A stretch of DNA of 62,745 nucleotides, the filler included, from Collodictyon triciliatum (taxonomy: Eukaryota): NCBI GenBank assembly GCA_043381765.1. It is 10 parts of 10 records of this genome, joined end to end, with 100 filler letters (N's around TTAATTAATTAA, not from the genome) between each part and the next. Parts side by side here need not be neighbours in the genome. Positions count along the whole stretch, not along the records: positions 44,676 to 52,016 come from JBHJMP010003947.1; 9 more parts are not named here. One strand, written 5' to 3'. The notes under the pieces were generated by a model. The model did not search any database. It was given only the letters and a program-made list of their open reading frames with translations, and was not told where the DNA came from. The position numbers and the translations under genes were made by a program. Shown here piece by piece: positions 2,368 through 62,745 of this stretch (its first letter is position 1; each line of letters opens with the position of its first letter).

Positions 2368-7187
<4,820 letters not shown>

Positions 7188-15041: not shown

Positions 15042-19879
<4,838 letters not shown>

Positions 19880-24227: not shown

Positions 24228-27200
24228 ATGGCACAGGTCCGCTCACCGGCTAATGGCTCGCTTGCTAGCTCGCAGGAAGGTATGAGCATAACACCACCAC
24301 AGGGCCCAAACAAGCGAGCTTCGTACGTCGTCGATGTGCAGAGCCCATCCTTTCACGCTTACATGCCCAACCTCACGCAAGGCTCTAAAGAGGATCAAGA
24401 GCAGCAACAGCCGTTGTTGGCACCAAAGCCCGTGACCCTTTCGGATGTCCCACGCGGCGTGCCATACATCCTTATGCAGGAGGTCTGCGAAAGGTACTTT
24501 CTTTACCAATCTACTACTCTCTATCCTAACCTGCATCTCGGTGGCATGGTGCTGAATCACCCCACTTGCCCATCCTGAGTCCATTTGCAGGCTTGCTATG
24601 TTTATCCCCCTTCCATATGATTTTGCCTGCCCCTCGCCGGTGGGATTCGCCTGTGACCACTCATTTATGGTCCTTCTCCTCACTTCCCATAGATACACCT
24701 TCTATGGCATACGCAGTATCCTCTACGTGTACATGAGTGACTACCATGGATTCAGCGAAGACACTGCCACATTCATCGTCCACCTATTCATAGCATATGC
24801 ATACTTGACTCCCTTGGTGAGTTATGCTCCATTTTTTTATTAATGCACTTCTCTTTTATATACTTCCGTTTGGTTTGTGCAAAATCGCGGAGGATTTATC
24901 AACACATATCTATATGGGTTTAATTTGCCCTAATATATGGTTCATATAAACTATTTTATACACTAAATAGCTATGACGAGGCATAATAACATATCACCGA
25001 ATTTTTTTTTGAATTTGACGAATTTTTCTTTCTATTATCCTTTATCCATCGGATGGCCTCAGTTCATACCACACTTTTTTTCTTAAAAGCCAATCAGACA
25101 TACTATGAACATTATCGCAGCAATATATGTATATAAAATTGTCTAAATTCGTGCAGTTTCCTCTAGATTGCTCCAAATACTCACTCTAAACACGATATTC
25201 TATTTACACTATCTTGTATTCGCACGCATCCAAAAATATTGGATAGTTTGGTGGATTTATATCTGATTCTTATCTGGGTAGGAGCTCACTTAATTTGACT
25301 GGATATGTTTACAAAAAAATGCGATTTTTCTCAGTATATTCAAATTAAAAAATGACATGTTGATTTAAATTGCTCTTTTACAAATATTAAAACCCTAAAT
25401 TAGCATAAACCAAAAGTTTTCAAGAGTCATTTCATTTGTAGTGTTTACAAATTTCACTTCCCAATAGGAAAATACAGAACCATATTATACTTTTCCTTTG
25501 TATACGCCGTGGGATCAATTGTACTCGCACTGACGGCAAATGCCGACATCACCGATGGTCCACAGTTTTGGGGATGTGCTTTGGGTCTTGTATTGGTTGG
25601 ATTTGGAACAGGAACCATAAAGCCATGCATCACAACTTTTGTCGGGGACCAGTTCACTGCAGAGCAGGTGTGCTAGAGATTAAGAGGGGGGTTGACGAAT
25701 TAAAAAAAAGAAAAGGAGGATAATGATTGTAATATGACAAGCACAAAATGGATTAATTTAAGAGTACACTTGATTCTATATTAATTTTTACATATTTAAC
25801 AATAATGTTTTAAAATCAAGTCCGATATGCTTCCATCCGCTTTTGCATGGCTTTACTTGTCCATTAATGTTGGCTCCTTGGTCGCCATGTTTGCCAGTCC
25901 AGTAATCCGTAAAGAACTTGGATTTGAGTACGCCTTCGGGGTACCGGCCTTTCTCCTCGTCGTTGCGATTATTGTATTTTATATGGGTCGAAAACACTAC
26001 CGAATGGTAAGTCGGTGCACATTGCTCAGGGATGTGAAGCTTTTTCAAAGTATTTTCCAAAATTATAGCAACAGAAGTTGATTGCAGATACGAGATTTTT
26101 CAATTGATCGATTTCCATACAGTAAAAAAAAAAAAACCTTTGAAAATTAGATGCCTCTTTCTGACAATATAATGGCGGCATTCTACAGAGTCATAAAGGT
26201 GTGATATATTTCTGGACCTTGTGTATAATCACCCACATTTATCTCAATATTCACTCTTGTAGATTATCTAAAAATAAAAATGAACCGGAGTAAATATTTA
26301 CACAAACAGGATTCCTTGAAAAGCCGCCTCAAAAGAGGCGTTCTCAACCCTCAACCTGCCTTGGAGCATTGGATGGACTCAGCCAAAGAATATCACAGTC
26401 CACGCTTAGTAGAGGAATGCAAAACGATGATGACACTTTTGAAGCTTTTTTTGTAAGCCAAATCTAGAGAGCATGTCCATTCTTATTTTCTGCTGTCCAT
26501 ATAAATTACCTTCTCAGGTGCTGAAGTATTTGATTTGCTAATTATATATAAGGCCATTACCAGTCTTCTGGATGCTTTATGACCAGGTTACTACGCGTTG
26601 GACAATCCAAGCCGAAAAAATGGATCGATTCGTGGGGTCATATGAAATCCCTGAAGACCAAATGTAATCCACCATTCATTTATATTCAATATTTGAGTAA
26701 ATGTCATCAACATGTAAAAGAGCATGTGTTATCGCAATCCATAAATTTCCATAGACAAGTAACCGGACCTGTTATGCTTATGTTTATTATTCCGTTCTTT
26801 GACCGAGTCGTTTATCCTACTCTCGATAAATATGGTGTAAGTCGAAGAATCTACAGTTATATTTTCCATTCCCGTTTCATATGTTTAGTCGTAGAAATGT
26901 AATGAGCAAGTGTTGAAATAATCTGCCTAATCATTTACATTTTTTTCGTTATTAGATTCGAATTGCACCATTAAAGGTTAGTCATACCGATACATAGGAT
27001 AATAAAGCATTTTAAATGATGTATTTATACGTAGAGTCGATTTGCTTGAAGTTTCTTGTGAGAAGGCATAGGCAAGAAACCGATAAAAGAGTTGTTGATT
27101 TCATAGTAACTTTTCATTAGCGAATCACTATTGGTATGATGCTCAGCGCCATAACCTTCGTGGTGGCTGGTCTTGTACAGCTGGTGATTGATTCTCAAGG

Positions 27201-29680: not shown

Positions 29681-30938
29681 TTTTAATTTNNNNNNNNNNN
29701 NNNNNNNNNNNNNNNNNNNNNNNNNNNNNNNNNTTAATTAATTAANNNNNNNNNNNNNNNNNNNNNNNNNNNNNNNNNNNNNNNNNNNNTTTTTGTTTTT
29801 TGTTTTTTGTTTTTTGTTTTTTGTTTTTTGTTTTTTGTTTTTTGTTTTTTGTTTTTTGTTTTTTTGTTTTTTTTGTTATTTGTTTTGATTGCGGGCTGGC
29901 AAAAAGCTTCTTTTGAATAGAAAGTCCGTTGCCGTTCATTATTTCTGGAAATTATCATATAAGCATATCTATCAATCTAAGAAAATCCATAATATGTATT
30001 CCTCATAGATTTCAAACACCAATATCTGCTACCAATCTATTATGCAAGTTTTTTTTTCCTTTGTTCGATTCAACCATCTATTATGCGAGTTAATCATGCC
30101 ACCGCCTGAATTAATGCCCAGCTATAGAATTGTGCCGTTGTCTGCAGAGCATTCGGTTCCAGATTTGCACAGCCTATTTGCACCACATTTCCGGAAGCGA
30201 AGCAACAGAAGATTCAAAGAAACGCGACAAAAGAGCACCCAATCATCAATCAATCAGAAATCGCTTTTTCTTGATTGCTTCGCCTGCCGCTCGCACAACA
30301 AACAAAGGTCGAAAATCTTTGAGGCAGAAGGCAAAAAGATGAAAGAACGATGACCACGCGAAGCAGAGGCAGAAAGACAGAGAGAATCTCTTCAACGTCG
30401 CTACCTGTCTTTTCTTTTCTTTTCTTGTCTTTTCTTTTCTTTTCTTTTCTTTTCTCTTCTTTTCTTTTCTTTTCTCTTCTTTTCTTTTCTTTTCGTTTCT
30501 CGTTCTTCTTTTGTCCCGATCGTTTGTTTGCCAGGAGTTCTCTGCTGATTTATGGCTGCCCTGTTATGCGACTGCCAGGGTTTCCTTCCTGCTCGTGTAA
30601 AAATACCTCTTTGTTCTTTCGCTTATGCTCAGTGTTTGTAATATTCTGAGTTCAGTACGTAAGAGCCTCCTTTTCTTTCTTTTGTCGCATTCTTTCAGCG
30701 GCGTGAATATTTCTCTTCATCGTTGATAAGCACCGGACGAAGAGTCTTTGCAAACAAAACTTTGCACACGGTGCAAATCAAACGAAGCCTGACCCACATA
30801 TATATGTCACCACGATCAAGCCACCCGCGAGGAAACTCGTCCCGCTTTTTCTGAAAGGGCAGGAAAACAAACAAGCCGCTTTTGACTTTGTCCTTGTGTG
30901 ACTTATCTATTCTGATTTTTGTCCATAGCTTGGGTCGA

Positions 30939-31780
30939 ATGTCGGCTTCCTCTGCGAATGCTGCTGCTTTGCAGAACACCCGCATCAGCCTTGGCGAGTC
31001 GACCGAAGAGCATTCCAACATGGGTTTGTGGAGTCATTAGACATAGCTGTTCTTAAGCAACACCGATTATTATTCTACTTTCACTGTCCCGTTCAACCAT
31101 AATCGTGATTCCTTTCCCTCCAAAATACAAGAAAATAGAAGAAAACACAAGAAAAGACATCCCCAATTTACAGTTTTCTTGACATAAATGCTGTCGGATA
31201 TGATAATATATACGTTTGCTCTTTCTTCACATGTAAAGATTCCTCTAGGGGACGCTTTTTACAACTTGACAAAATAACACTTGCATTTTGCAATTTAGAA
31301 AAAGATTATCCAAGCTTTATTCCGAGATATCGACGCAGTGCTGATTCATACGGAAAAATTGTAAAATCGCATGTAATCGCAAAGCCCACTGGTATCTTTG
31401 CAGAGTCTCGGTACCAGGAGGAGTCTGAGCTTTTTGCATGGTTTCAAGACCCTGAGAAAGTGACATTGTGGCGAGTAAAAGACAGGGTGGATTTTCAGAT
31501 GCTAAATCTTTGCTTTAGTATGGCAGCATGTACTCACACGACCTTGTTATCAATCTTCTAAATTATTTGCACATATATCCAATTGATTCACTCCTTGCTT
31601 TTCATCTTCTTCAAAAACCCTAGATGAAAACAGTCAGTGTGGCACTCGTTATTTGCCTCAATATCGGGGTCGACCCACCAGATATTCTTAAAATTCCACC
31701 ACATGCGAAACTTCAGTGTTGGATAGGTATCTTATTAAAGTTATTCAGCAAACCTAATGAATCTCAACCTACTGCTAATT

Positions 31781-31864
<84 letters not shown>

Positions 31865-34800
31865 TTACCAACGTTTATTTTGATACGCACAATTCGCTCC
31901 TATGATAGCATGAACAAATTAATTGCTGTGTTAGAATGATATGTTTTTTCTCTTGAAAATTTCTATTCGTACTGGATATACTTCTGTCGTAATATTATTT
32001 ATCTTACTATAGATCCGACTGAACAGACACCATCCAAAGCCTTGGAGAATATTGGAAAAAACTTACAGGCACAATATGAAGTTTGGCAGGCCAAGGTACC
32101 TACCAATCACCTTTCTCATCACAATTTCATCAAATATTTGCCACATTTTTAAGAAGTATTGATTTCCAACTGATGTGTGCATACTGACATCATTTTTTGT
32201 ATCGCCACTCAATATGCCAGTTACTTCGCCCACTAAAGACCATATTTTTACGGGATTATATGCAGTAACTTTTATGATGACTTCTATGCAGGCCAGATTT
32301 AAACAATGCCTGGACCCAACCGCTGAGGACGTCAAGAAATTGTGTGTTTCTCTGAGAAAATCCTCAAAGGATGAGCGTGTGCTGTTCCATTATAACGGAC
32401 ATGGAGTTCCTAAACCCACACAAAACGGAGAAATTTGGGTGTTCAACAAGGTATTATGATTTTACATGATTTTTCTGTTTCTATATATACCCACACACCA
32501 TTCAAAGAGGATCTGTAAACAAATTTAATATAACAGTACCACAAATCCAACATCCTCATCATTTTGCACAAAATTGAATAGAAAATAAAAAATTATACCA
32601 GTGCCATTTATGCACCGGAATAGTTCTATTTTTGTTTCTTTATTAACAATACACAATTATGAATAGGAATACACACAATATATTCCCCTGTCTATTTACG
32701 AACTCCAAAATTGGATGGCGTCTCCATCGATGTATGTATTTGATTGTTCTAATGCTGGACTCATACTCCAGACATATATGCAGTTTGCAGACCAGAGAGA
32801 TAAGGACAATGATGTAAGTTGGAACTTTTCTCTTCAAAACGAATATCTCAACTTTTTTTTGGTTCCTAATTGATTGCATTATCGCTCAAAATAGTTTATA
32901 CATCTATAAAAGTTTGTCACAGTTTATGTCCCTATTCCTTCAATTCAGAGAAAGATGTCTGTTGGGTCTTCATACACATCAGCATCTGATGCGCCAATCG
33001 ATGTTCGTGATGTCATTATCCTCGCTGCATGCGGCGCGAATGAAATTCTCCCCTTAAACCCAGATATTCCTGCTGATCTTTTCACCTCATGCCTGACTAC
33101 ACCAATTCAAATCGCAATCAAATGGTATCATTTCTGCAAATAATCATCCACACATCAATTTTCATTACCCACATGAGACCATACTATGGATACCCCTTTT
33201 ATATTTATTTCAGTATTTGGAAGACCCTTCCTTTGAATAATTTTGGTAAATCCTAGCGCCCAGCTAGGACATAATGCTAATTTTCTTTTGAATTGGTGAT
33301 CAGGTTTGCGCAGCGGTCTCATTTAATCAGAATATCCGGTGACTTGGCCGAAAAGATACCTGGTCGGCTTATTGACCGACGAACACCTCTCGGGGAATTA
33401 AATTGGATATTTACAGCTGTGACAGATACAATTGCATGGAATGTTTTGTCACAAGGTATGTATGAATTAACTGAGCATGCACTCACACCCACCTATCACT
33501 CCATCTCTTTCTTAGATGTATATCTAATCATCAATCTGGTGCACCATTTGATTTGACTTCATTCCTGTATTAATCGGTGCATACATTCTAATGTGTCTAA
33601 GCATTCCCCATTAACGCTCTTTACTTTTTTTTTTCTTTATCGGCGAAAAAAAAAAAAAAAAGAACTATTCCAAAAACTTTTCCGCCAAGATATGCTGGTT
33701 GCATCACTTCTTCGCAACTACCTATTATCTGAGAGAATTATGCGCAGCTATAGTTGCAACCCTGTTTGTTACCCTAAAATCCCCTCGACATACAACCATA
33801 CTCTTTGGTATGCATCTCAATAAATATCTTTGTCTCGAATTACCATTTTTAACCTGTTGTAACATTTTTAACCTCTTGAATATACTCTTGTTCCTATGTT
33901 GCAATTTGAAAATAATATTCTTCATGTTCAAAAAGCAGTGGACTGAAAGACAACTTCAAGTCCATTGTACTTTCATTCCTTACCTAATATGCAATTAATC
34001 TGTGCAGGGACGCTTGGGAAATGTCTCTGGAGGGCTATTTGGCCCAAATGCCGGCCTTTGAAAAAGACCCAAACTATGTCTTTCAAGTTTGTAATATCTC
34101 GTAGGCTCAGTTCCTGGGTTTCTCATTCTCTTATGACCCATCTGGCTCTTTCATTTTATTCATATATTAAAGTTGAAGCAGCTTCTTTTGTGACTATAAA
34201 CTTTGTTAAATATACCTTTTCTTATTTGTTTACAGTCTAGCTCTTTCTTCGCTGACCAGCTCACTGCATTCGAAATGTGGCTGGAATTGGCCACTGAAAC
34301 GAAAGGGAAACCCGAACAACTTCCCATCGTACTTCAAGTCTTACTGAGCCAATCGCATCGTTTACGTGCTTTGAATCTATTAGCGAGGTTCTTGGATCTG
34401 GGCCCCTGGGCAGTGAATATGGTGTTTATTTGTTCAAACACCATTTCGTTTGTACTCTTTCTCGCTCCTCACTTGGACTCCTCCTATATGGTCACTACAG
34501 ACGCGTTCCATGCTTCTTTTATATATATATATATACTGATGTTTGATTAATGTGATAAACAGGGGCTTTCTGTTGGGATTTTTCCATATGTTTTGAAACT
34601 ACTGCAGAGCCCGGCGATCGAACTCCGTGAGACACTTGTTTTTATTTGGGCGAAGCTACTATCTGTCGATCAGGTATACTCCAGGCAGTGAGCATGATAT
34701 AGTTGTCTTATATTCTCTGGTATTCATGCCACTTCTACGATTTGTTATACATTACGTACGTTACGAAAATGATTCTAACAGAAGTACCTCGTTCTATTCT

Positions 34801-36980: not shown

Positions 36981-37232
36981 GTAACATATTCATTCTGATG
37001 AAAATTTAGAGATTTGTTTGTTTGTTTGTTTGTTTGTTTGTTTGTTTGTTTGTTTGTTTGTTTGTTTGTTTGTTTGTTTGTTTGTTTGTTTGTTTGTTTG
37101 TTTGTTTGTTTGTTTGTTTGTTTGTTTGTTTGNNNNNNNNNNNNNNNNNNNNNNNNNNNNNNNNNNNNNNNNNNNNTTAATTAATTAANNNNNNNNNNNN
37201 NNNNNNNNNNNNNNNNNNNNNNNNNNNNNNNN

Positions 37233-40373: not shown

Positions 40374-42847
40374 ATGAGGGTCAAGTCGATCCCCAAGGCC
40401 TCTAGCCAAGCTGTTGTTGGAGCGCCCCCCACAATATTCCCACTTCGCCTACACAGGAGCCAGTTCTCAACTCCAAACGCCTCCTCTGGCGACAGCCCGC
40501 TGTTCTCTTCTGCAAACGGAATGACGCATAACAGTGTCGATCGGAATGACACTGGGCCCACTCCAAACAATAGGCCGAATAGACCCTTAGCGTCCGAGGC
40601 GTGTAGCGATCTACCCTCACTAACAACCTCGGCGAACCTCCTCTTCAATCTGTTCAAAGGAACAGACAAGATTCACCCCAGCGAATCCCCGCAACTACCG
40701 TCTAGCCGATCGTCCCCGTCTGGACAACTTCTTGAAGACCACTCGGCCTCTGTTCCAACACATACACCTTCTGACTACCCGCGCACATTCCTTAACTTGC
40801 TTCCAGACTTCCGCTTTGTATTCCAGCTTCAGATCGATGCTCCGGTACAAGGAAATAGCGCATATACCCAAGCGGTCAAACCAGTAACTGAGCCCTCCAA
40901 TGTTCGACCTATACCGCATATTCCTACAAAACCAAGCACATCATCTCAGGATACGGTGGTAACGAAAAAGCCAAAGCAAAAGAGCCTGGAATACGCAGTC
41001 GCATCATCAGACAATTGCGCTTGTTCTCTGTGTGCTCGTGGTGTCCCCAATGGATATGAAGCTAATATGTAAGACATTTCTTCCCCCTTCTCATCTCCTA
41101 GCATATGATAATCTTTTCACATTCATATTATGAAGGAATAATGCATTTTATAACCCAGTGAAGGAAAAGTTGAGATTTAACAGATTTATTCCCAACCTCC
41201 TCAAAAACATCACGCTAATGGTTTCCTTTCCATTTGCACTCAGCGGAAATGCCCTCCAAGTTATCATGTGGGTTTTATCAGAGCTTAGACTGATCGATCT
41301 GACACGGAATTGCTCCACCGCGTCTTACCACAGCATTAAGAAGGATATCTTACCGTTTCTCAAAAAGCATGCTGGAGTGCTCCTAGGAGGCATCGCAAAA
41401 TTACCGGACTCATTATTCAAGACCTGCATCAAGATAATGACACGGAATTCCAACCTTTTTATGAACTTCGAGAGATACCCCACGGGTGAGTCCATTATCA
41501 CTCACTCCAATTCCAATATAAATAAAACAAATATTTAAACTGAGAATTAGAAAAAAGAAGAAAAAAAGAAGAAAAAAAGAAGAAAAAAAGAAGAAAAAAA
41601 GAAGAAAAAAAGAAGAAAAAAAGAAGAAAAAAAGAAGAAAAAAAGAAGAAAAAAAGAAGAGAAAACATACTCATCATTTCTTATCATCAAAGTACATCCT
41701 TAACCACTCACCATCGAGTGCAACAGCACAAGCATTACTTGACTGCAACATACGATCCACAGGCAAAGTCTCCCCTAACGACCAGCTCTGGAAGCTCAAG
41801 CCAAGCATCAACCCATACGAGATGTTCACCAGCGCGGTCGTGCCACACGAACCAACCCTTTCGCCCATCACAAAGCCAGCCAAGGCGAGCTTACCCGACG
41901 CCAAAAAGCGGCCACTTTCACCCGCACAAGTCTTTCCAACCACAGAGCCGCAGCCGCAGCCGCAGCCACCACCATCGCCACTGCTGCTACCACCCACTCC
42001 GTTTCCCACCACGATAGTCATTCCACGCCCAAAGTCGATGCGCACCGAGCCGCCTGCATTGTCCCTTGGCAACTTATCTGCACCAGAGACAGCAACCATG
42101 GGCGCACAGGAAGCTATGGGCACCCCGCACAAAAGGGCAGAGCAGACCACCACACACATCAAGATTCGACTGACTCCGCGGCCGCACCCGGCCGTGGCTG
42201 AGAGTGCCGCAACGCTAGGGCAGAACGGCCCGGTGCATCACAGATGTAAGACACCCCCGGCAGAGTCGGCACCGTCAACAGACATCGCACCCGCAGAGGC
42301 CCTGCCTGCATCTGCCCTCGAGCGTAGCGACAACAGCGGCAGCGACTCATCACTTGACCTGTCTGCATGGTCGGCCCGCGTGGGAGACCGCCGGTGCGGA
42401 CACTGCAACACGGGCAACACGGTGCTGTGGCGGCAGGGGCCTGACGGCAAAGGGACGCTGTGCAATGCCTGCGGCGTCCGGTGGAAGCGCGGCATCATCA
42501 AGGTCACCTCAAAGAGGTTTGTGCCCATGACTTTTGCCCACGACGCGCCCACCGGCCTGAGCAGAAACAAGGACTTTGCCGACGGACTCGCAGATGCGGC
42601 CCATTATGCTGCACGCAGGCATGGAAGTGTCCACGGTCGGCTCTTGGCAGGTGTGGGTGCAGATGCAGATGAGGATTTGGATGATATTGATGATGAGGAC
42701 GAGCTGTGCGATGAGGAGGATGGGCTGTGTGATGAAGAGGATGACGAGGAAATTGACATCACCGTCAGCCAGGACGAGAAGGACTCCGACGAGCAAGACG
42801 AGCTGCTGGAGACAAACGAGGCGGCTCCAGACTTTTCTCCTGCATAG
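40374..42847 (+). CDS. GATA zinc-finger transcription factor (C-X2-C-X18-C-X2-C) with an upstream Cys/winged-helix-like domain and acidic tail, 3 exons
   Basis: CGHCNTGNTVLWRQGPDGKGTLCNACGVRWKR. Upstream exons splice in phase: CACSLCARG...|GNALQVIMWVL...KKDILPFLKKH...NLFMNFERYPT|GKVSPNDQLWKLKPSINPY. D/E-rich C-terminus; the start codon is tentative. Confidence 0.85.
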
Positions 42848-44510: not shown

Positions 44511-44575
<65 letters not shown>

Positions 44576-44675
44576 NNNNNNNNNNNNNNNNNNNNNNNNN
44601 NNNNNNNNNNNNNNNNNNNTTAATTAATTAANNNNNNNNNNNNNNNNNNNNNNNNNNNNNNNNNNNNNNNNNNNN

Positions 44676-45156
44676 ACTCAGCGCGTCTGACATCCTGTTT
44701 GGCCCACAATACCAAATGACCCACGACTCTAGAATACTCTGGACAGTCACAAGGGAACATATGCTGTGGTCCTTATGGAGTGTGCGTGCATTCTCTCGCT
44801 CCATTGATTCACCCGAACGAGAAATTAATGTACCGAGGCTTGATAGCCTCATGCAATACAGCTTCCTGAACAGCCTGCTGAAACACGCCTGCATTCTTCG
44901 CTACTCTGACCGCAAGCGAAGAGAGATGTGGGAATGTGTCGTGCGATATCTCCCACAGCATATCCAACCCTGCTACCCACGCAACCAATCAGCCAGTTGG
45001 GATGCCCACCTGACCAGCTCGCTATCACTGATTTCTTTCCAGTGCTACCCTCTCCATGGTAGTGTCTTCTCCTACTCACATTTGCTCTCTACTACGTGTA
45101 CCAATCTCGCCCCTTTGTATGGCATATCCTCGCTACACTTTGAATCGAACAAATGA
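44676..45156 (+). mobile_element. 3' end of non-LTR retrotransposon ORF2 (remnant)
   Basis: ILFGPQYQ...LWTVTREHMLWSL...LDSLMQYSFLNSLLKH...YSDRKRREMW aligns by eye with the post-zf-RVT region of the element at 59869-60559. Confidence 0.65.
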
Positions 45157-46983
45157 AAAAAACATCTTACAAAGCACTGTATGGTGAGGAATTAGCCTAT
45201 GCTTCCTTGTGTAGGTCATCTTAGACTTGCACGAAAACTGTGGGTTTTAAACGCAGGTTTTTGAATTATGAGGGCTGAGCCCAACCGGGAGCCGTTTAAA
45301 GGGTTGCTTTGAACACCAAATCACTAATTTCCAGAGTTGCTTTTGAATTATTCTACGAACATGGATGAGTCGGAGAGTAGAAAAAAATGTCAGTTGCTTG
45401 CCACATCCCACCCCCCAAGCCAGAAACTTACTAGGGTAGGCAGCACAGGGTGCTAGAAGGCCATAACACTATGCAGGTGGAAAGGCGTGGTATCATTGTA
45501 TTTTTTTCTTCCATTCGATCTGTGCGAGATGATGGGGATTTTGGCTTTGCATGAATCCTTTGATATTTAAAAGGAACGTGCTTGTATGAGAAGAGTTCGA
45601 TCATGATCTCTTGCATTTTTTTTTCGCCCAGCTGTTGTTGCAGCAAGGTTGAAAGTTGATAAACATTTATTGGGCTTTTATACAATTGCACCATATTTGA
45701 CCATATATGTCTGTGGGGAGCTTCATAAAATACTGATTAAATAGTTGGCAAAATATTCCCTATCATATTATAACTATATAATAAACAATCATAGATAACA
45801 AAAACCTTCGGCATAATTCACACCCGTTCTCTTCCTCTCATACTTTTTTTTTTAAAAAAAGAAGCAATCTTTCTGAAGTATGATTAGCACAGAAGGACAT
45901 TCAAACTGAAAAAGTAGCATATTTTGCGAATATCCAGTAAAAAAATGATGCGAGGTAACCCGATATTATCGTTGGTGAATTCATTTTAGATATATGAATT
46001 CGATTTGCTATTACTTGTTCTATATAATTCAAGCCATAAGAAGGCACATAGTGTATGTTGAGTGAATGTATAAAAAAAGGATAAATGCTGATGCTTCTTC
46101 AATTAGTCACAATCAAAGCACACCCGAACGGGGTCGATAACATAATTTCATATATATATGCAGTCTCTATTTCTAGTATTGTACCTCTCAATATTGTTCA
46201 ATATTTTTTATCTGACAAGGAAAAGATCTATATAGGCAGTATTTTCTTCCTACCCTATGAAAATGCAAAACTTTGACTGAGCGAGGGATTATTTTGAAGA
46301 TAAATTCTCTTACTTATCAATTTAATTCGAGCCCTTCGATCAATACACCCCAAAAAAATTTCTTAATGAAGATGATTTATAGCATTTAATTCTAAACCTA
46401 GCCTTATTTTGATAGACTCTTCTTTCTATTCATGGTCAAATTAATAATAATTTTTTTCTCACGCCACATGGTTCCTTATTCTGTAATGACATTCACTTTT
46501 AATTTTGGTATCAATAATCAATATGAAAGCATTTCGAGTGTTGATGAAAATGAATTACTGAAATAACAAAACTAATAGAATGATAGTGGGAAATTTAAAT
46601 TAAACCTTATAACAGTCATTTCTAATATCTTACAAACGAATCAAAATAGTTGCTCAGTTTTTTCCCCTTTATTCGAAAATAGTTGCTAAGTTAATCTAAT
46701 AATTAATCGAAATTCATGATGATTTTGAAAAGGTTAACTTCTTAGGCTGTTTCCATTTTTAATTTTATTCAATTGGCTAAACCTATAATAATATTGGGAT
46801 AGTTTGTCGCATAAAGTAATTTGATTTCTAACACTGATCTATTGATTAGATATTTTTGAATGAAATCGAATTCTCAAATGAAAATCATAGCAGCCACTGG
46901 TATACTCACATCCCATTCTTATTTTATGCATGGCATACATTTTTTTGGCTTAATGCGATCATGTTGCTATAATAAGAGTAAAT

Positions 46984-49900
46984 ATGTACCATATAATAGG
47001 TTTTTTTTCTTTTTGTTGTTTTTTATCATGTTATTGCCAAGTATCCTCGATTTACACATGCGGGATTGGCCATACTAATTGGATTCGTGCTGTTGCTGTT
47101 ACTTATGATTCATCAAAAATTATTACTGGAAGTTTCGACAATAAAATTAAGATTTGGAATCTAAATGATGGAAGTTTGATTCGAACACTTATTGGTCATA
47201 CAAACGAAGTATGGAGTCTTGCACTTCCTATTGATAAACCCCTAATTTTATCTGGAAGCATGGATAATACAATCAATATTTGGAATCTTGATGATGGAAG
47301 TTTGATTCGCACATTAACAGGGCACACTTCCGTCGTTGTCTGTATCACTGTAATGCGTGAAAGTTTGAAAGTAATCTCTGGAAGCACTGATTGTTCTATC
47401 AAAATATGGGATATATCTGACGGAAAATTAATTCGTACATTCAGTGGCCATACTGGTCAAGTTAATGGAGTTTATGTGACCTATGACGATACACGAATTA
47501 TATCTGGAAGTTATGATATGACAATCAAAATCTGGAATATTTCAGAGGGAAGTTTAGTTCAAACACTGACAGGACATAGTCTTTCTGTCAGATGTGTTGC
47601 CATAAACCGTGACGGTTTTATTGTATCGGGAAGTAATGATAAATCCATCAAGGTATGGAACATCACTGATGGAGCTATGATTAGGTCATGGATAGGTCAT
47701 ACTCAATCAATTTGTAGCATAGATTTCCATCCTGATGGGTTATTAATTGTCTCTGCAAGTTACGATAAGACAGTAAAAATATGGAATCTTTCTGACGCGG
47801 CTTTAATAAAGACTTTAGCTGGTCATTCTGGTTGGGTTAATCAAGCTATCATTACGTCTGACGGATCGAGTATAATTTCTGGGAGTGCTGATTGGAGCTC
47901 AAAGTTATGGAGATTCCCTTCTGGAGACCTTATTTACACCTTAATGGGGTCTAAAATCAAAAGTATTTTCAAAAGCGGGACTCATGACATTTTTATAACA
48001 GGGCATATGGACAATAGCATCAGAACATGGAATTCATTGAACGGAAATCCTATTCTTTCAATTTATGGACATCTTGATATAGTCAAAACATTGATATTGA
48101 AGAATAACGAACCGCTCATTATATCAGGAAGTGTCGATACTACTATAAAAATATGGAACATCGATAATGGAACGTTAGTTCAATTATTTCAAGTACACTC
48201 AGCTTCAGTAAATTGTATCCTTATCTCTGCAGATGAAAAAAAAATTATATCTGGAAGTAGCGATAAAACAATCAAAATTACAAGTATTTCAGATGGAGCT
48301 GTAACTCGTACGTTAACTGGGCACACTGGAATTGTAACGAGCCTTGCTTTAACTCCCGATAATTCAAAAATTGTGTCCGGAAGTTCAGACAAAACAATCA
48401 AAGTTTGGAATATTTTTGATGGAACATTAGTCCAAGAAATAAAAATTCACACTGATTCTGTAAATTCTGTTGCCATAACTTCAGATGGAACGATAATTGT
48501 TTCTGGAAGCAGTGATAAAACAATCAAAATAACCAACATTTCAGATGGAAATATAATTCGCACACTCAATGGGCACACTGGAATCGTCAATACAGTTTCA
48601 ATATCTCCTGATGACTCGAAGATTATTTCTGGGAGCAGTGATAACACAGTTAGAATTTGGAGCTTTTCAAATGGAGTCACAATACATATTCTGAACGAAC
48701 ACGTTGCAGCAATAAATGGAATATCAATTTTCTTAAATGGCTCGAGATTTTTGTCAGGAAGCGATGACACAACAATAAAAATGTGGAGCTTGCCTGATTT
48801 CAGCTTGACTTTGACAGTTTCAGGCCACACAAGTTCGGTTAATAGTGTTTCTTTAAGACCAGATAAAACAAAAATTGTGTCTGGAAGTAGTGATAAGACA
48901 ATTAATATTTGGAATTATGCTGATGGTTCTCTATCGCTATCGATAAGTGCCCATTCGAACGCCGTGAATAGTGTAGTTGTTTCGGCTGATGGAACAAAAA
49001 TCGTATCAGGAAGCAGTGACCAGACAATTAAAATGTGGAATCTTTCTGATGGTTTACTATTGAAAACATTTAATGGTCACACTGCAGCTGTTCGAAGCGT
49101 CGCAATATCATCATATAATTCGGTTATGGTATCAGGAAGTGATGACATGACTTTAAATGTTTGGAAAGTTTCAGATGGAACTTTAATAAGAACCTTATAT
49201 GGACATACGAAAGCAGTGAATTCTGTTTTTATTACGCCTGATAATGTCAGAATTATATCAGGCAGTGCTGATTTTTCAATAAAATTATGGAATTCGTCAG
49301 ATGGAGTATTGATAAGAACCATAACTGGCCACGGAAACGCCGTAAGATGCGTTATTACATCTCCAGATGACACGAAAATAATATCTGGAAGCAGCGATAA
49401 CACAATCAAGATTTGGAATATATCAGATGGCGTGTTAATTCGAACCCTTATTGGACACAAAAGTTCAGTAAATAGCATTTCGATATCACCTGATGGAACT
49501 AAATTATATTCTGGAAGCAGTGATAATTCAGTCAAAATATGGACAATATCAGATGGAAGAGAAATCAGAACACTTTTGAGTCATACCAGTTCAGTCAATA
49601 GTGTTTTTGCTACACCTGACTCTAAAATAATTTCAGCAAGCACAGACGCATTCATCAAAGTCTGGAGTCCATGCCAAGGAGGATACTTTTTCAATCAACA
49701 ATCAAATACATGCGATAGATGTCCAACTGGCTCTTACAATAACGGAAACGAGCTCACCTCTTGTTTAAAATGTCCAACTGGAACTTATAATCCATCAACT
49801 GGCTCCACAAGCCTCAAAGATTGTCTTCCGTGTGAAGAAGGAACATTCAATAATCTTTTGGGCCAATCAATATGCAAAAAATGCGAAGCTGGGACGTTTA

Positions 49901-52016
49901 ATAATCTAAAAGGCCAAGTGACATGTAGTAATTGCACTGCTGGATTTTACAGCAATTCAGGAGATAAGTCGTGTACTCCGTGCCCTGCAGGAACATTCAA
50001 TCCAACCATCAGGGGTGCTGGAAATTCTTCATGTCTTTTATGCGAACCAGGAACATACAACAGCGTCGATGGAAAATCGAGCTGCTTCGATTGTCCTGTT
50101 GGGTTTTTTATTAATGAGAAAGGAAAGCAATTTTGTAATCCATGCCCTACTGGTACTTACTCAAACAAAACGAAATCAATTACCTGTGAAAAATGCCTGG
50201 CTGGTTCCTACAATCCAAATGTCGCATCAACTAGTATTAGCAATTGTCAATTGTGTCCGCAAGGGAAATTTTCATCAAAATCGAGTGAATCAGCTTGTGA
50301 ACTATGCCAACCTGGTACATTCAATCCATATATCGGCCAGATTTCATGTCTTGAATGTAAGGATGGTACTTATAATCCAAAGTTTGGTTCAACAAGTAAC
50401 AAATCATGCATTGAATGCTCAGCAGGAACTTTTGGGAATAATTACAGAGATGATTGCTTATCATGTCCAGCTGGTACATTCAACGACAAAACTGGCTCAT
50501 TCAATCAATCATCATGCATTTCATGTCCAAATGGAAGCTACAGCTCAGAAAGAAGCTCATCATGCAGTTTATGTTTATCAGGATTCTATCAAAAAGAAGA
50601 AAACATGAAAGACTCAAAATCATGCTACTCTTGTCCGAAAGGCACATTCAATTCAAATTCCGGCTCATATGGCAACACATCATGTATTGAATGTCCACAA
50701 GGTACTTGGAATGATAGAGAGGGTCAAGCATCATGCACATCATGTTTAGCGGGGACATTCAACGATAAAACCGGCTCATTCAACCAATCATCATGCATTT
50801 CATGTCCAGATGGAAGCTACAGCCCAGAGAGAAGCTCTTCATGCAGTTTATGTTCACCAGGATTCTATCAAAAAGATGGAGTTATAAAAGATTCAAAATC
50901 ATGCTATGCTTGTACAAAAGGTACATTCAACTCATACTCCGGCTCATATGGAAACAAATCATGTATTGAATGTCCACAAGGCACTTGGAATGATAGAGAT
51001 GGTCAAGCATCATGCACATCATGTCCAGCTGGTACATTCAACGATAAAACTGGCTCATTCAATCAATCATCATGCATTTCATGTCCAGATGGAAGCTACA
51101 GTTTAAGTGGAAGTGCATCATGTAGTTTATGTTTATCAGGATTCTATCAGAAAGAGGGAATCAAAAAAGACTCAGAATCATGCTACGCTTGTCCAAAAGG
51201 CACATTCAACTCATACTCCGGCTCATATGGAAACAAATCATGCATTGAATGTCCACAAGGCACTTGGAATGACAGAGATGGTCAAGCATCATGCACGTCA
51301 TGTTCAGCTGGTACATTTAACAATAAAACTAGTTCATATAATCAATCATCATGTGTTTCATGTCCAAATGGAAGCTACAGCTCAGTTGGAAGCGCATCAT
51401 GCAGCTTATGCTCATCAGGATTCTATCAAAAAGAAGGTGTGACAAAAGACTCGAAATCATGTTATGCTTGTCCAAAAGGTACATTCAACTCAAACTCCGG
51501 CTCATATGGAAACAAATCATGCATTGAATGTCCACAAGGTACTTGGAATGACAGAGAGGGTCAAGCATCATGCACATCATGTCCAGCCGGTGCATTTAAC
51601 GATAAAACTGGCTCATTTGACAAATTATCATGCATATCATGTGCAAATGGAAGCTACAGCTCAGAAAGAAGCGCATCATGTAGTCTATGTTCATCAGGAT
51701 TCTATCAAAAAGAAGGAATCATAAAAGACATACAATCATGCTATGCTTGTCTAAAAGGCTCATTCAACTCATACTCCGGCTCATATGGAAACAAATCATG
51801 TATTGAATGTCCACAAGGTAGCTGGAATGATAAGGATGGCCAAGCATCATGTACATCATGTACAGCTGGTACATATAATAACAAAACTGGTTCATTTGAC
51901 GAATTATCATGTATATCATGTGCAAATGGAAGCTACAGCTCAGAAAGAAGCGCATCATGTAGTCTATGTTCATCAGGATTCTATCAAAAAGAAGGAATCA
52001 TAAAAGACATACAATC
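46984..52016 (+). CDS. Intronless putative secreted/surface protein: signal peptide + 21 WD40 repeats + Cys-rich (ephrin-receptor-like/GCC2-GCC3-type) repeats; 3' truncated
   Basis: Single open frame of about 5 kb. Hydrophobic N-terminus MYHIIGFFSFCCFLSCYC; 21 GH...SGSxDxTIKIW units to about 49668; then CxxCPxGTY/FN repeats to the contig end. Confidence 0.9.
50461..52016 (+). repeat. Coding tandem repeat, 279-bp (93-aa) period, about 5.5 copies
   Basis: Units start at 50461, 50740, 51019, 51298, 51577 and 51856 (SCPAGTFNDKTGSFNQSSC...CPQGTWNDREGQASCT) and are highly similar at the DNA level. Confidence 0.92.
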
Positions 52017-52240
52017 NNNNNNNNNNNNNNNNNNNNNNNNNNNNNNNNNNNNNNNNNNNNTTAATTAATTAANNNNNNNNNNNNNNNNNNNNNNNNNNNN
52101 NNNNNNNNNNNNNNNNTAGAAAAGAAAAGAAAAGAAAAGAAAAGAAAAGAAAAGAAAAGAAAAGAAAAGAAAAGAAAAGAAAAGAAAAGAAAAGAAAAGA
52201 AAAGAAAAGAAAAGAAAAGAAGAGAAAAAAGAATACATAC

Positions 52241-55200
52241 ATTTTCCCATCTTCGGAGCCCGACAAAACGTATCGACCATCTGAGCTGTAGCAACTTTTT
52301 ATACTCCTCTTGACACAAATAGAACCCATATAAACACCAATCGTAGCGTAAGTCTTCAGTTCTACTGATCTATATGACACATCATTTATTATTATTTATT
52401 TTTTGCCAATAACTTGATCATACTAATATATTTTCATTACACATATGATGCCATCTTTGTTATATGTGTTAGCTACAGTATTCCTTCGGATTATCTATCC
52501 AATATTTATATCTACACACTTTTGGGTGTGATGATCAAATTCAAATTTAACCAGCAATGACCTAATTTGGTTGTTTTGGCTGTGGACAATCATTCTCCGT
52601 CCTGTCGGGTGCAGTTTGAGATTTGTGATTGCGTCGGACTGGCATAATATTAAAAGGATCAGCTTTGGAAGGTCTGATATAATCTACTTGGACATGATAA
52701 TTTTATCTTGCTTTGTTATTGATACAATCCCCCAACTCCCTCTCACTTCCCTGATGGTTTTCCACGGTGATAGTACATTCATTTAACTTATTTTTTATAT
52801 AATTTTTTGATATTATCATATCTGCAACAGTTAAAGCCTCTCAATTCACTAAATGGAAAAGTGAAACAAGATAGAGTAAAATACATTAGCCACAATACAA
52901 ACCGTCTTCTCCGGTGGATGTATGGAGCGAAGACATTCATATCCTTCAAAAGAAGCACTGGCGCTTTGCTTTTTGGACCAAACACGAATGACGCCGCCGC
53001 CATCGGCTGTATACATTTTCTGACCCTCCTAAATCATGAAACAATCAAATTTAGTTCCTATGGGAATCATTATATTTTCTCTTAATAAAGACAGACATTA
53101 TCGATAGCTAGGTATCGAGAAATAAAATTAATTTTATATCAAGTCAGAACAATTAGCATACGACCTTCTCAAATAGCACAGAATTAATGTAGTTTCGATG
53201 AGATGGCATTTCAAACAACAAAGTTCCATCATCTCGGTTCCAAAGACGAACCATTGTATCAAAGGCGCCAGTGGCAATAATTCTGAAAATAAACAATCAT
53301 TAAAATATTATCTTGCAGATTGAATCGTATGATAATTCGGGTATGATTCGTCTTGCCTGGGACTTCTTGCCGTTGGGTGATATTGAGCAGCATATACAAA
53401 TGATGTGTGCTAAATATTTTATTTTAGTTAATTTTTTTAATAGGCAATCAGTCAGTGACGAAGTTTTTCAACCTCTATCATATTCCATGATTTCTTTGTT
53501 GTTTTATCTTCTTATGCAGATACCTGAAGAGTCATAAAGGAATGCTGTCTTGGATCCCTCAGGAGCCAAATCTTAGCAGTGAAATCAGAAGACGCTGTGA
53601 CAAACTCACTTCCATTCGGTTGCCAACATATCTCATGTATGATATCATGATGTCCTGATGCGATTATCAATATAATCTAAACATTATACTATTTTTTCTC
53701 CATTTATCTTGTCACAAATGTTAATCGTATTATAAACCTGAATATTTGGAGACAATATCTCCGGATAACACTTCGAAGATTTTCACTGGATATGTTTGGT
53801 TATCTCCACATCCAGCAGCCTATTTATGAGATAGAACAATAAGAAGAAGAAAAAAGAAGAGTAAAATAAGCAATCATTGGCAACACAGGTAGGATGCTCT
53901 GTCACCAATCGTCGATTTCTTTGTTGGAAATTTGAAATTTTATGGAATACATGCTTCAAATGTTTATATTTCGGCGATTAAATTCAATTTACCAAATATT
54001 CACCGTCAGGTGAGAATTGTATTGATAGACATCCCCTTCATAAAGAAATAAATTAATCAAGCAATTATTTATGGGTTCAATAACTTCACTTTATAAGGAA
54101 AATACATTTGAGCTAATTATGCATACGGGGGTAAATATTTGGAAATTACATCGATGCCGTATCGAATTTGTGCATTAGACTATTTGGAAGTTTACTTCGT
54201 TGGCCTGGTAGTCGTTTCCATCGCATAAAAAGCTGGAACAGTTACAGACAAGAATGTTTTAATAAAATATTGCAAACAAATTATTTAGGACCTAGGAGTG
54301 TGTTGGATATATATTTCTTTCTTGGTGCTCATTTTTCTTATATTTTTTTAGAGGAATACTTTGAGTTCATCGGGCACATCAGGGTCATCTGTTTTTTCTT
54401 GGGCGATATCTTGTCCTTTATGTTGTTCCATGATTTCTTCATAAGTTAAGCGACCGAGCTCTTCCTTTATGTTTACAGCAAGCACTTACTTTATAAGAAA
54501 ACTCATAAACATATGTATGATTATTGTGCATGGTATCATTCATACTACTAAACCTGGAATGGATTTGTTGGTCGCCTTCCTTGGTAAGCCTCGCGCTCAG
54601 GCCTTTTCTTCCCGCTAATTGTTATGTGAAGTGTTGAAGGATATTCCTTCCTCTTATCTGTGGTAAAGAATATGACAGAACATGTAAGAGTTGTTGAAAA
54701 AATAACTCCATTTGAATCGAGATATCGATGATAGTATGATACAGGGGAAAAAAAACATCCATACATTTATCAAAGACAAGCTGGTAGATTGGCGGAATCT
54801 TGAATCGTGAATGAATAGATTGGCCTGGGTGATGGTAAAGCTGAATACGAATAGGCTTTTCTGTGTTTGCAACACCAGTCGATCCAATTATCTTTAGGAA
54901 CCCCCAACAGATACGGTAATATCCATCAGGAGACACAGTCCTACAAAGAAAAAATCAATTCAAATAGACTTTTGACAATACAACACCTAAATGAGAAAAG
55001 ATTCAGTAATGGATCCTTACTTTTCAGGTTGCTTTTTAGAGGAAAAATCGATAATTTCGAAAAGTAGGATGACTTCTGGCTTTGCCAAAAACAAATAATC
55101 TTCATCAATCAAGATCTCCTGTTAAAACAATATAATCATAGTGAGGCAGAGAAGACTGTAAAAATTGGGAAAATTATCGGTTTTTTTTATCAAAGAATCC

Positions 55201-59385: not shown

Positions 59386-59604
59386 GTAAGTAGCCACTCA
59401 TGAATTCTTTTTCTTCACTCACATGTAAAGTCAATATCATTCACTTTGGGGTNNNNNNNNNNNNNNNNNNNNNNNNNNNNNNNNNNNNNNNNNNNNTTAA
59501 TTAATTAANNNNNNNNNNNNNNNNNNNNNNNNNNNNNNNNNNNNNNNNNNNNAAAAATTTTTATTCTATAATTTAAAATTTTTTTTTTTTTAAGCTTAAA
59601 AATA

Positions 59605-59636: not shown

Positions 59637-60559
59637 TGATTTCAATTCAATCATTAATTGAGAGAAAACAAAGTCGAGGAAACCGCCTTCACCTCTAGGA
59701 CAAAAATAAGCTGTGGACGAGACAGTGGAAATCCCGGATTGTGTGGTTGGAGTTTCTGTATTTTGGGTGAAAGAGGAAGAAAAAAAACAAGATAGGAAGG
59801 AGGAAAGTTTTTTTTTTATTCTTCATTTTAATTTTGTGCAAGATGGTGAAGATGTTGACATTGGTTCACTAGCCATTGTTTGCGTGGACGCTACTTGTTG
59901 GCCGGGTGGCGGAGAAGTAGTCGGTTATCAGGAATTGCATCCTGCGGTTTGGCCTGTAGCCTGGGTCTTGTGCTTGCATGAGAGAGACAAAACGAAGTTT
60001 AATTTCTTTCACAGTCTCTTTCCACATGTCTCTTCTCGCAGGGTCTGAGTAGTAGAGAACGTGCATGTGGCGAAGAAAGCTGTTGAGGAAAGATATTTAT
60101 ATGATGACATCCAGTCAATTATCAGGAATGGGTGGCTGGTTGTTGAGTCTTGCTTTGCGTGAGTATATGCACGCTATCGACATAGTCCATAGCAAATGGC
60201 CTCGCTTCGCTGCCCATAATGTTTTTGCCTTTGGACGCAGCTGTTGCAGAGGCCCAAATATCGCCTGGATTGGACCAACAGCCGCAGCCGTCTTGAGTGT
60301 CAACCGAAGAATCTCACCGGTTGTTTTGCGCAGGTTTTGAGCGAAGGGACATTGCACAAATGTGTGCTCGATGGATTCATCACCGTTGCTGCAAAGTGTG
60401 CATTGTTGGGAGACTTTGCCAGCTTTTGCCGCGCGTGTGCCTATCCATAGCTCCCTATTGGTGATATTAAGCATGAGAGAGCGGTGATTTGGAAGGACTT
60501 GCGGGGTTCGTGCTTGTCTCCAGCTCGCGGTGAGCGGGGTGTGGGTGATGCCCAGTGTT
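59606..60559 (-). mobile_element. Non-LTR retrotransposon (L1/Tx1-like) 3' end with zf-RVT and poly(A) tail; pseudogenised
   Basis: CTLCSNGDESIEHTFVQC is a CCHC zf-RVT motif. The ORF is broken by in-frame TGA (60115-60117) and TAA (60097-60099) and ends at 59869. A 3' UTR and an A-rich tail follow (T-run at about 59606-59637 on +). Confidence 0.8.
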
Positions 60560-60659
60560 NNNNNNNNNNNNNNNNNNNNNNNNNNNNNNNNNNNNNNNNN
60601 NNNTTAATTAATTAANNNNNNNNNNNNNNNNNNNNNNNNNNNNNNNNNNNNNNNNNNNN

Positions 60660-60949: not shown

Positions 60950-62546
60950 AAGCAAATGAACCAGATTCTGAGGATTCCATCCCACTTGGCCCACTCCTTG
61001 TCTCTGCTCCATCAACAAATCTCACCATTCTGAATCCCACCGAGAATCGCTCTTCTGAATCGGAGTGTCGAGTTTTGTTCGACTCCCTCTGCGAATGCGA
61101 CCCACCGTTGCCGCCCACCGCAAAGCCGATTCTCATCAGATTTCTTCCCGATCATTCGGCACTATGCTTTGTCTGTGATTCTGGTCATATCTTCCTCATT
61201 CCCATGCAACTCCCTGCTTTCTTCAACGAAGCAGACGGCGACCTCTCATCCCAGGTAGTCTTTTATTTTATTTTGCTTTGCTATGTTTCTTTTTTATTTT
61301 TTAAAAAAAAGAAAGACAAAGATTTTCATCGCATTTTACTTTCTCTTACACATGGATTCATTTTATGATACTCTTATATTTCAATCCGATGAATTAATTA
61401 TGAAAGATTTTTCATACCTGATTATTATATACCAAATCATCGAATTAACTGTAAACCACCGATTCAGATCGAATGTGTTGGGCATGTTGAGGACGGCCTT
61501 GCTGCTGCCTCATGGAGCCCTGATGGAGAGCTTTTGGTACTCATTTCATGCACCGGAAATATCCTTCTAATGACAGCAAGTTGGGATGTGTTGGCAGAAT
61601 CCCGTGTGCCCCTTTCAAGCGAGTCGAATGCTCAAATGAAATTTTCCTACCACCACTCATCGGCTTGTTGGCGCGGGGATGGAAAATACTTTGTGTGCAG
61701 CGTTTTGGATAGAATATCATGCAAGCTTTATTCACATATTACATATGTGCCAAAGATTCGTTCTTCATACTTTATGAGTTTTTGTACATATGATCAAGGT
61801 TTCTGTGAAGTACATATTATAATTCCTTTTAGCTCTCATTCCACGTCGCTTTGATATGTCATGAATAGGTCATAGGGCAATATTGGTCTATGACAGAGAT
61901 GGAAAAAAGCAAGCGACATGTGAAAACACTACCAAAGTCGAAAGTCCACTATCATGGAGGTTCCAATCAATTTTTCATCGATTTTACCCGCAACGTTTGT
62001 CTCTTTGAAACAAAAGCAAGAGAATGAAATGTTTTCCGTCAAAATTGAACACTTTGAAGTGATTATCCTTTGTTTTAAAAAAAAAATTCCTTCTCTCTCC
62101 GTGTCAATCCATATTATAGACCTAGTGGAAACTTGATTGCTGCAACAGAGAAGCAGCAGAATGGAAAATACTTTGTCGTTTTTTTCGAAAGGAATGGGCT
62201 CCGTCACGGAGAAATCATACTTCCCTTCAATTCCAGTGAAGCTGAAGTTGTCCAAATTGGTTGGAACATAGAGTCTGATGTCATCGCTGTGTTGAGCAAA
62301 AGTAAAGAAAAGGTTTTTTTTTTCTTCTGGGAGTATTTGAAGCTTGGTTGATGCAATCCAGAAATTGAATTTTTTTTATTTAGAAACCTAAGTTAAATAT
62401 ATATGTATCGTAGCATATTCTTCAACTATACTCTATGAGCAATCATCATTGGTATTTGAAGCAAGAATTTGTCTATGATAATATTCCGGGAGCTACTTTC
62501 TCATGGCACGAAGAAAAATCTTATTTCATCACTATTTTAGTTCCAG
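60950..62546 (+). CDS. ELP1: Elongator complex protein 1 (IKI3/IKAP), N-terminal part
   Basis: IECVGHVEDGLAAASWSPDGELLVL, CWRGDGKYFV, LSWR|PSGNLIA, VVFFERNGLRHGE, WNIESDVIAV, NHHWYLKQE. Confidence 0.95.
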
Positions 62547-62745
62547 GTTCATCGCAATATGAATCACACAATTACTTTCTCATGGAACACAACTCTACAC
62601 TTTACTACTTTGGACCTTTTTTTAAAACAAACAAACAAACAAACAAACAAACAAACAAACAAACAAACAAACAAACAAACAAACAAACAAACAAACAAAC
62701 AAACAAACAAACAAACAAACAAACAAACAAACAAACAAACAAACA

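Follow-up and report, generated by a model that had tools for sequence, protein, structure and literature searches.

The window analysed here is a stretch of 62,745 nucleotides, filler included, from the Collodictyon triciliatum assembly GCA_043381765.1; it is a chain of unrelated small contigs ordered by descending size, and its adjoining parts are not linked in the genome. One of these contigs (JBHJMP010003947.1, 44676-52016, 7341 bp; nothing beyond either limit is genomic context) carries an open reading frame (ORF) that encodes a signal-peptide-like leader, a long array of WD40 repeats and a cysteine-rich stalk, in that order. The ORF runs on the + strand from an ATG to the last base of the contig (46984-52016, 5033 nt, 1677 real residues) and, as an initial annotation of the sequence had reported in proposing a candidate surface receptor, no intron or interruption is needed across its length. 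An apparent ORF end at 52068 was rejected as artificial, since the stop codon there belongs to a linker and the contig finishes at 52016. The gene is real, protein-coding and of eukaryote type, and its parts are listed in Table 1.

The WD40 part consists of 21 units in a strict 42-residue register (residues 29-905), with the consensus GHTxxVNSVxxxxDxxxIxSGSxDxTIKIWNxSDGxLIxTLx. This agrees with the repeat count given initially, and Pfam recognises 20 stretches (PF00400, E 1.2e-173; repeat 8 is degenerate). Repeats 8 (8/26 positions) and 14 (13/26 positions) are furthest from the consensus. The first GH of the array comes 10 residues after the leader, and the last blade is complete, ending in ...IKVWSP with C897 of the stalk directly next to it and no linker between them. 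Residues 19-28, ahead of the first GH, resemble the strand that follows each WD unit; judged from this resemblance, the strand could close propeller 1, and none would then be needed after repeat 21, where the stalk begins.

Structure modelling, as suggested in the initial annotation, was carried out with AF2. The bare sequence gave a mean predicted local distance difference test score (pLDDT) of 35.8, and a model of residues 1-1000 built with an alignment (36 rows of WD40 relatives, no coverage of residues 301-350) gave a mean of 74.8, with four strands per repeat and blades mostly above 85 (most 80-96 in propeller 1). Confidence dipped at residues 320-380 and 570-610, falling below 50 at 320-378, where the alignment provided no coverage. 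The top Foldseek match of this model was the two-propeller Nostoc protein 2ymu_A (E 4.8e-48), which was also the best PDB sequence match of the WD40 part (E 6.4e-130); designed consensus propellers likewise rank high among the PDB matches. Whole WDR5 chains (~305-335 residues, one solved seven-bladed propeller each) aligned to residues 603-895. Because of this alignment, the off-consensus repeats 8 and 14 and the dips in model confidence, the proposed arrangement of 3 x 7 blades is likely, although not proven.

The WD40 units share a mean identity of 56% at the nucleotide level (highest 71%) and 37% at the amino-acid level, and they differ at 0.69 synonymous differences per site, which is near saturation. 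The nucleotide identity and the synonymous divergence indicate that the units are old, and Tandem Repeats Finder (TRF) reported no tandem array in the WD40 part. The repeats of HET-E/NWD proteins are nearly identical to one another. The initial likening of the array to HET-E/NWD repeats therefore fails with respect to internal conservation.

The stalk comprises 772 residues and 84 cysteines, and all 42 of its units fit CxxCxxGx[FYW]. The earlier description of more than 770 residues of CxxCPxG repeats was thus right on length and repeat type and too narrow on the motif, its proline being present in 21 of the 42 units. Pfam assigns the stalk to Ephrin_rec_like (PF07699, E 6.4e-117, 20 stretches). 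Following a non-repetitive part, it enters a tandem super-repeat (TRF: period 279, 50460-52008, 5.6 copies, 88% matches) that runs into the contig end. The gene is cut there (52016), inside the tandem repeat, and its C-terminus is absent, as had been recognised; a tandem repeat is the usual cause of an assembly break. The rest of the gene was not found by tblastn on the other contigs of the window. The five full copies of the super-repeat are 84-89% identical (11-16% of bases differ), and the ratio of nonsynonymous to synonymous change (dN/dS) was 0.17-0.32 in all 10 pairs of full copies. Purifying selection has therefore acted on the protein sequence of these stalk copies ever since they originated.

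The best solved relative of the stalk was the Chlamydomonas mastigoneme protein MST1 (8tx1_A, E 2.4e-40), with ELAPOR1 next (E 1e-8). In MST1, the corresponding domains are described as a disulfide ladder with steps ~11 Å apart in an extracellular filament (PMC10602792). By analogy with MST1, the stalk cysteines would pair in the same manner, which is consistent with the disulfide-bonded extracellular type of stalk initially assigned, and the part of the stalk seen here, scaled to 42 units at MST1 spacing, would measure roughly 45 nm.

At the N-terminus, residues 4-18 (IIGFFSFCCFLSCYC) are more hydrophobic (Kyte-Doolittle 2.05) than any other 15-residue stretch of the protein. A signal-peptide-like N-terminus, as first described, is thus borne out in the form of a hydrophobic leader; the signal peptide itself is putative, and in our reading of the sequence cleavage may follow C18. 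Beyond the leader, the Kyte-Doolittle mean stays at or below 1.36 in every 19-residue window, and there is therefore no internal membrane-spanning segment. Since the stalk is of an extracellular type and no membrane segment separates it from the WD40 repeats, the propellers should lie outside the cytoplasm. This argument is carried mainly by the covalent joining of the WD40 part to the stalk and not by the leader alone, and the secretory-type topology that had been proposed, in which the propellers precede the cysteine-rich stalk, is supported.

The start ATG has an A at -3. Upstream of it, a 159-aa open frame lies at the contig edge (44677-45153) and is followed by AT-rich DNA, with GC content dropping from 0.50 to 0.25 towards the gene; apart from the contig-edge frame, no open frame longer than 101 aa was present in this part. 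Open frames in these 2.3 kb had no Pfam match, and tblastn with the studied protein had no match there. The initial annotation had itself named an upstream cytosolic domain such as NACHT as an objection to its reading. No NACHT, NB-ARC or other STAND nucleoside triphosphatase (NTPase) domain was found among the best 25 of 55 Pfam families in the ORF, nor in the upstream 2.3 kb on the contig.

Table 1. Features of the gene, its contig and the linkers; coordinates are window positions.
Feature	Coordinates	Strand	Remarks
Upstream part of contig	44676..46983	+	no WD40, cysteine-rich or NTPase coding potential
In-frame TAA	46951..46953	+	11 codons 5' of ATG
Signal-peptide-like leader, residues 1-18, MYHIIGFFSFCCFLSCYC	46984..47037	+	hydrophobicity, manual reading
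Probable propeller 1: lead strand (residues 19-28) and repeats 1-7 (29-319)	47038..47940	+	
Probable propeller 2: repeats 8-14 (residues 320-613)	47941..48822	+	repeat 8 degenerate
Probable propeller 3: repeats 15-21 (residues 614-896)	48823..49671	+	WDR5 alignment, register
Non-repetitive stalk, residues 897-1157: C897 and 14 CxxCxxGx[FYW] units	49672..50454	+	
Tandem stalk, residues 1158-1677: 279-nt/93-aa super-repeat of five units, at least 5.6 copies	50455..52016	+	
Gap and linker: N44, TTAATTAATTAA, N44	52017..52116	.	other contig begins after it
Linkers N44-TTAATTAATTAA-N44	7349-7448, 14799-14898, 22246-22345, 29690-29789, 37133-37232, 44576-44675, 52017-52116, 59453-59552, 60560-60659		

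We assessed the novelty of the domain combination against 378 relatives, made up of two sets of best 120 matches from indexed searches and the best 150 from an exhaustive search of 1.84 billion representatives; the full match lists behind these sets held 3191, 1070 and 404,111 entries, and smaller two-domain proteins may exist among them. None of the 378 relatives combined WD40 repeats and the stalk in one protein at E <= 1e-3, the studied protein itself being the only case. No match crossed the junction by more than ~11 residues in the 150 best stretches of the exhaustive search, and 56 pattern matches to the junction in 185,579 bacterial and archaeal representative genomes yielded no confirmed relative. 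ESM Atlas searches with the whole protein and with residues 780-1100 returned WD40 clusters only (scores <=0.86) and are uninformative on two-domain proteins. Literature searches for Ephrin_rec_like with WD40, GCC2_GCC3 with RCC1, and extracellular or secreted WD40 found no such protein; they returned only CRINKLY4, a review of cyanobacterial orthocaspases and a Giardia sorting receptor. That no characterised family has this architecture consequently stood for the exact combination among these relatives and in the literature, but not for the general layout, as propellers on stalks are frequent and CRINKLY4 is a solved ectodomain that joins a propeller to a cysteine-rich part.

The best relatives of the stalk make this layout apparent. 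The closest was 35% identical, with no close relative among the best 120, and all 120 were eukaryotic or metagenomic (those named include Percolomonas, Anaeramoeba, Andalucia, Triparma, Aureococcus, Plasmodiophora, Mnemiopsis and various animals). According to stored Pfam lists, 23 of the 120 carry other propellers, namely RCC1-type (19), Kelch (2), FG-GAP (1) and NHL (1), with WD40 in none. In seven of them (P0131, P0132, P0134, P0142, P0146, P0160, P0169) the propeller always preceded the stalk and a membrane-anchor-like segment always followed it, and five of the seven had a hydrophobic leader. In P0131, P0142, P0134, P0160 and P0146, a hydrophobic leader and an RCC1 propeller precede 34-37 CxxCxxGx[FYW] units, and the chain finishes in either a hydrophobic tail at the C-terminus or membrane-spanning segments; we read the tail as resembling a glycosylphosphatidylinositol (GPI) signal. 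Percolomonas relatives have several membrane-spanning segments after the stalk. On such sequence comparisons, an anchored propeller on an Ephrin_rec_like stalk is a frequent design in protist and metagenome proteins.

The studied protein follows the same order of leader, propeller and stalk as the protist and metagenome proteins exemplified by P0131 (an MMETSP transcript), P0142 (a cluster of 302 sequences) and P0132 (Percolomonas), in which a leader and an N-terminal propeller precede 34-45 CxxCxxGx[FYW] units, and its stalk is 28-34% identical to theirs over 95-99% of the length. It differs from them in the head, which in place of an RCC1, Kelch, FG-GAP or NHL propeller comprises three canonical GH-WD propellers. 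In our reading, the WD40 head is a new head variant on a known propeller-on-stalk design and not a new kind of system, and the membrane-anchor-like ends of these proteins are the best guide to its missing end. The literature searched contained no experimental study of these relatives.

The nearest sequence relatives of the head are of a different sort. Its best matches were bacterial arrays, cyanobacterial ones among them, at 49-52% identity and NACHT-WD40 proteins of basidiomycetes at 40-43%; because the repeats are close to the family consensus, identity to bacteria says little on descent. STAND NTPase-WD40 sensors (HET-E/NWD, cyanobacterial NACHT/nSTAND-WD40, 2ymu_A) share the 42-residue GH-WD repeats and are the top-scoring sequence relatives, but the studied ORF has no NTPase domain and is read as exported, not cytosolic. 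Under a crude rule of our own (the protein starts with M and a hydrophobic leader, and the array begins within 80 residues), 49 of the 224 WD40 relatives fetched, bacterial-looking, had a signal-peptide-like leader directly before the array. The initial premise that WD40 propellers are overwhelmingly intracellular thus holds only for eukaryotes and does not extend to these relatives; going by such signal-peptide-like leaders, bacteria commonly have canonical WD40 arrays outside the cytoplasm. A review of cyanobacterial orthocaspases also predicts WD40 domains in an extracytoplasmic position (PMC7475262).

Exported arrays such as P0332, P0077 and P0246, mostly of metagenomic origin, resemble the studied protein in having a leader and then a regular WD40 array within 80 residues, at 43-46% identity. 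They differ in that their leaders mostly carry basic residues (K or R within the first 12 residues in 44/49), many carry a non-WD40 extension of ~360-590 residues, and none has a cysteine-rich stalk. P0332, P0077, P0246, P0307, P0323 and similar proteins share a recurrent layout, in which a signal-peptide-like leader and ~14 WD40 repeats are followed by a further ~400-590 residues at the C-terminus. The C-terminus of P0332, the sole extension checked, is a Peptidase_C14 caspase-type domain (E 5.4e-20), which would represent an exported WD40-caspase architecture among bacterial-looking metagenome proteins.

For a propeller followed by a cysteine-rich domain, the plant CRINKLY4 receptor kinases are the only case among those found that has been both solved and studied by genetics. 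Crystal structures (ACR4, PpCR4) show an extracellular seven-bladed propeller, called "WD40" by its authors, with one disulfide per blade (bioRxiv 10.1101/2020.08.10.245050). The propeller is joined to a cysteine-rich domain of ~90 residues with weak likeness to the tumour necrosis factor receptor (TNFR), and then to a membrane helix and a kinase (bioRxiv 10.1101/2020.08.10.245050). Unlike CRINKLY4, with its one propeller and compact ~90-residue domain, the studied protein has three propellers, no per-blade disulfide pattern and a stalk of more than 770 residues. MST1 is similar in its extracellular disulfide-laddered rod of ephrin-receptor-like cysteine-rich domains, but has nine immunoglobulin-like domains, a polyproline helix and filament polymerisation, and no propeller (PMC10602792). 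A Giardia sorting receptor has a lumenal region that is weakly WD40-like (PMC3423367).

With moderate confidence, we favour the reading that the gene encodes an exported, probably membrane-anchored surface protein in which a triple WD40 head on a long disulfide-laddered stalk acts as a binding module. A putative cleavable leader would direct the protein into the secretory pathway, with the three seven-bladed propellers directly after it. These would be carried at the far tip of the stalk, which would be long and rigid, with a ladder of disulfides through its 42 or more Ephrin_rec_like units, and the missing C-terminus would most likely supply a GPI-type or transmembrane anchor, by analogy with the stalk relatives. 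In this position, well away from the membrane, the propellers could bind other cells, prey, matrix or particles. Stalk length would be set, and may be varied, by the 93-residue super-repeat. We infer the cleavage of the leader, the extracellular location, the anchor and the binding function from the features set out above.

Several observations weigh against this reading. The C-terminus, and hence any anchor, lies outside the window, and the AF2 model built with the alignment has low confidence for the leader and the stalk (stalk pLDDT below 50). There are just six cysteines in the 21 blades, with no disulfide-per-blade pattern as in CRINKLY4. The WD40 part shows no excess of N-glycosylation sequons (9 vs 13.3 +/- 3.0 expected); those in the stalk are slightly high (19 vs 14.3 +/- 3.2 expected). 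The leader has no basic residue ahead of its hydrophobic core. Its codons (TTT TTT TCT TTT TGT TGT TTT TTA TCA TGT TAT TGC) form a T-rich tract that is followed by an AG at 47039-47040, coinciding with the start of WD40 homology, while genes on other contigs have GT-AG introns; it is possible from this arrangement that the leader tract is the 3' end of an intron, with an upstream exon beyond. Lastly, GC content at third codon positions (GC3) is 0.27 in both halves of the ORF, a value lower than in any of 12 conserved exon pieces taken from other contigs (0.34-0.88), and the contig and its neighbours in the window may stem from different organisms.

The last of these points underlies the alternative that survives best, although we consider it rather unlikely: the contig would be foreign to an intron-rich genome, deriving from a co-sequenced protist (contaminant, prey or symbiont) or from a recent acquisition, or, as a variant, a bacterial exported WD40 head would have been fused to a eukaryotic stalk. 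Conserved genes elsewhere in the window (Raptor_N, ELP1, PTR2, protein kinase) have exons of ~100-300 nt and short GT-AG introns, and the assembly is that of an intron-rich eukaryote, against which an intron-free gene of low GC3 stands out. The window is also built of small leftover contigs with uneven GC content (0.20-0.53 per 2 kb), the best named stalk relatives are free-living protists (Percolomonas, Anaeramoeba, Andalucia), and the WD40 part is nearer to cyanobacterial arrays than to fungal ones. However, the contig holds one gene only and the comparison sample is small. Equal GC3 in both halves also speaks against this alternative, as do the age of the WD40 units and their closeness to the family consensus, which makes identity a weak guide to descent, and the scan of bacterial and archaeal representative genomes confirmed no close relative.

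An incomplete gene model at the 5' end appears unlikely as well, and somewhat more so. Under this explanation, the leader is a translated pyrimidine-rich intron end, and the authentic start of the protein lies in one or more upstream exons, on the contig or beyond it, which supply a signal peptide of their own or additional domains; WD40 repeats would nonetheless be joined to the stalk. The T-rich leader codons, the AG placed exactly where WD40 homology starts and the short GT-AG introns of the Raptor_N, ELP1, PTR2 and protein kinase genes on other contigs are all in its favour. They are opposed by the context of the ATG, with its A at -3 and an in-frame stop 11 codons before it, by the spacing of leader, 10 residues and first GH, a layout similar to that of the 49 leader-bearing WD40 relatives, by the upstream 2.3 kb, which hold no WD40, cysteine-rich or Pfam-recognisable coding piece, and by the intron-free nature of the remaining 5 kb of the gene.

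That the ORF is an assembly chimera of a WD40 gene and a cysteine-rich gene, or an unexpressed relic, is highly improbable: the small contig ends in a collapsed tandem repeat, the combination is absent from the other relatives and the two halves use serine codons differently (TCA 0.26 vs 0.64), but a single frame stays open for 5 kb across the junction, the first stalk cysteine immediately follows a complete last blade, dN/dS is well under 1, amplification of a single 279-nt unit accounts for the serine bias, and a chimera is argued against by the equal GC3 together with the lack of any shared exact repeat of >=18 nt linking the WD40 and stalk parts or lying at the junction, and thus able to mislead a k-mer assembler.

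Returning to the favoured reading of an exported surface protein, a more far-reaching version of it remains doubtful in our estimation. In this version, a eukaryote would have put canonical GH-WD propellers, the recognition module of cytosolic STAND sensors of immunity and incompatibility, outside the cell. Three of them at the tip of a length-variable stalk of at least ~45 nm would form a receptor for the recognition of self and non-self, prey or mates. A bacterial exported array may have been the source from which the head was captured, and the protein would be the first eukaryotic extracellular receptor with true WD40 repeats. Canonical WD40 propellers in eukaryotes are regarded as cytosolic or nuclear scaffolds. 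If confirmed, a surface protein with three of them would imply that the WD40 fold can function in the secretory pathway with no disulfide in each blade of the CRINKLY4 type, and it would bring a further kind of head to the large class of propeller-on-stalk surface proteins of protists, which is abundant in environmental data. The practical value is limited for now, as the gene is truncated.

Elsewhere in the window, the linker sequence TTAATTAATTAA occurs nine times (vs 0.04 expected) at a spacing of ~7.44 kb, and later of 1.1 kb; linkers with stops in all frames are a common means of joining contigs. On the contig following the gene, weak WD40-like exon pieces were found at 53174-53676 (-) (best E 7.65e-04 against the repeats of the studied protein). 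These were rejected as a continuation of the studied gene, being weak matches only and belonging to an ordinary WD40 gene. Rfam had no match anywhere in the window.

Exon pieces of conserved genes lie at 31624-31902 and 32163-32456 (+), 61393-62743 (+), 25404-26078 (+), 2371-4078 (-) and 21024-21728 (+), and encode a Raptor N-terminal domain, an ELP1 propeller, a POT/PTR2 transporter, an AGC-type protein kinase and a ubiquitin-conjugating enzyme. A Raptor exon from one of these contigs matched an EukProt transcript best (89% identity), ahead of a mixture of amoebae, Naegleria and animals (83-87%) that favours no one lineage. A separate contig has an intron-free ORF of 804 residues at 16843-19257 (+) with no Pfam match. 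The contig at 37233-44575 is far GC-richer and carries a GATA zinc-finger ORF at 41522-42844 (+), with GC3 of 0.88 within the finger, which points to contigs of mixed composition or mixed origin. Tracts of (GAAAA)n, (TTTC)n and poly-A (52124-52222; 31779-31866; 44541-44575) occur at or near contig ends and inside an intron, and such microsatellites and homopolymers at contig ends are likely causes of assembly breaks. A zf-RVT ORF (the zinc-binding region of reverse transcriptases) at 60118-60558 (-) is a retroelement fragment.

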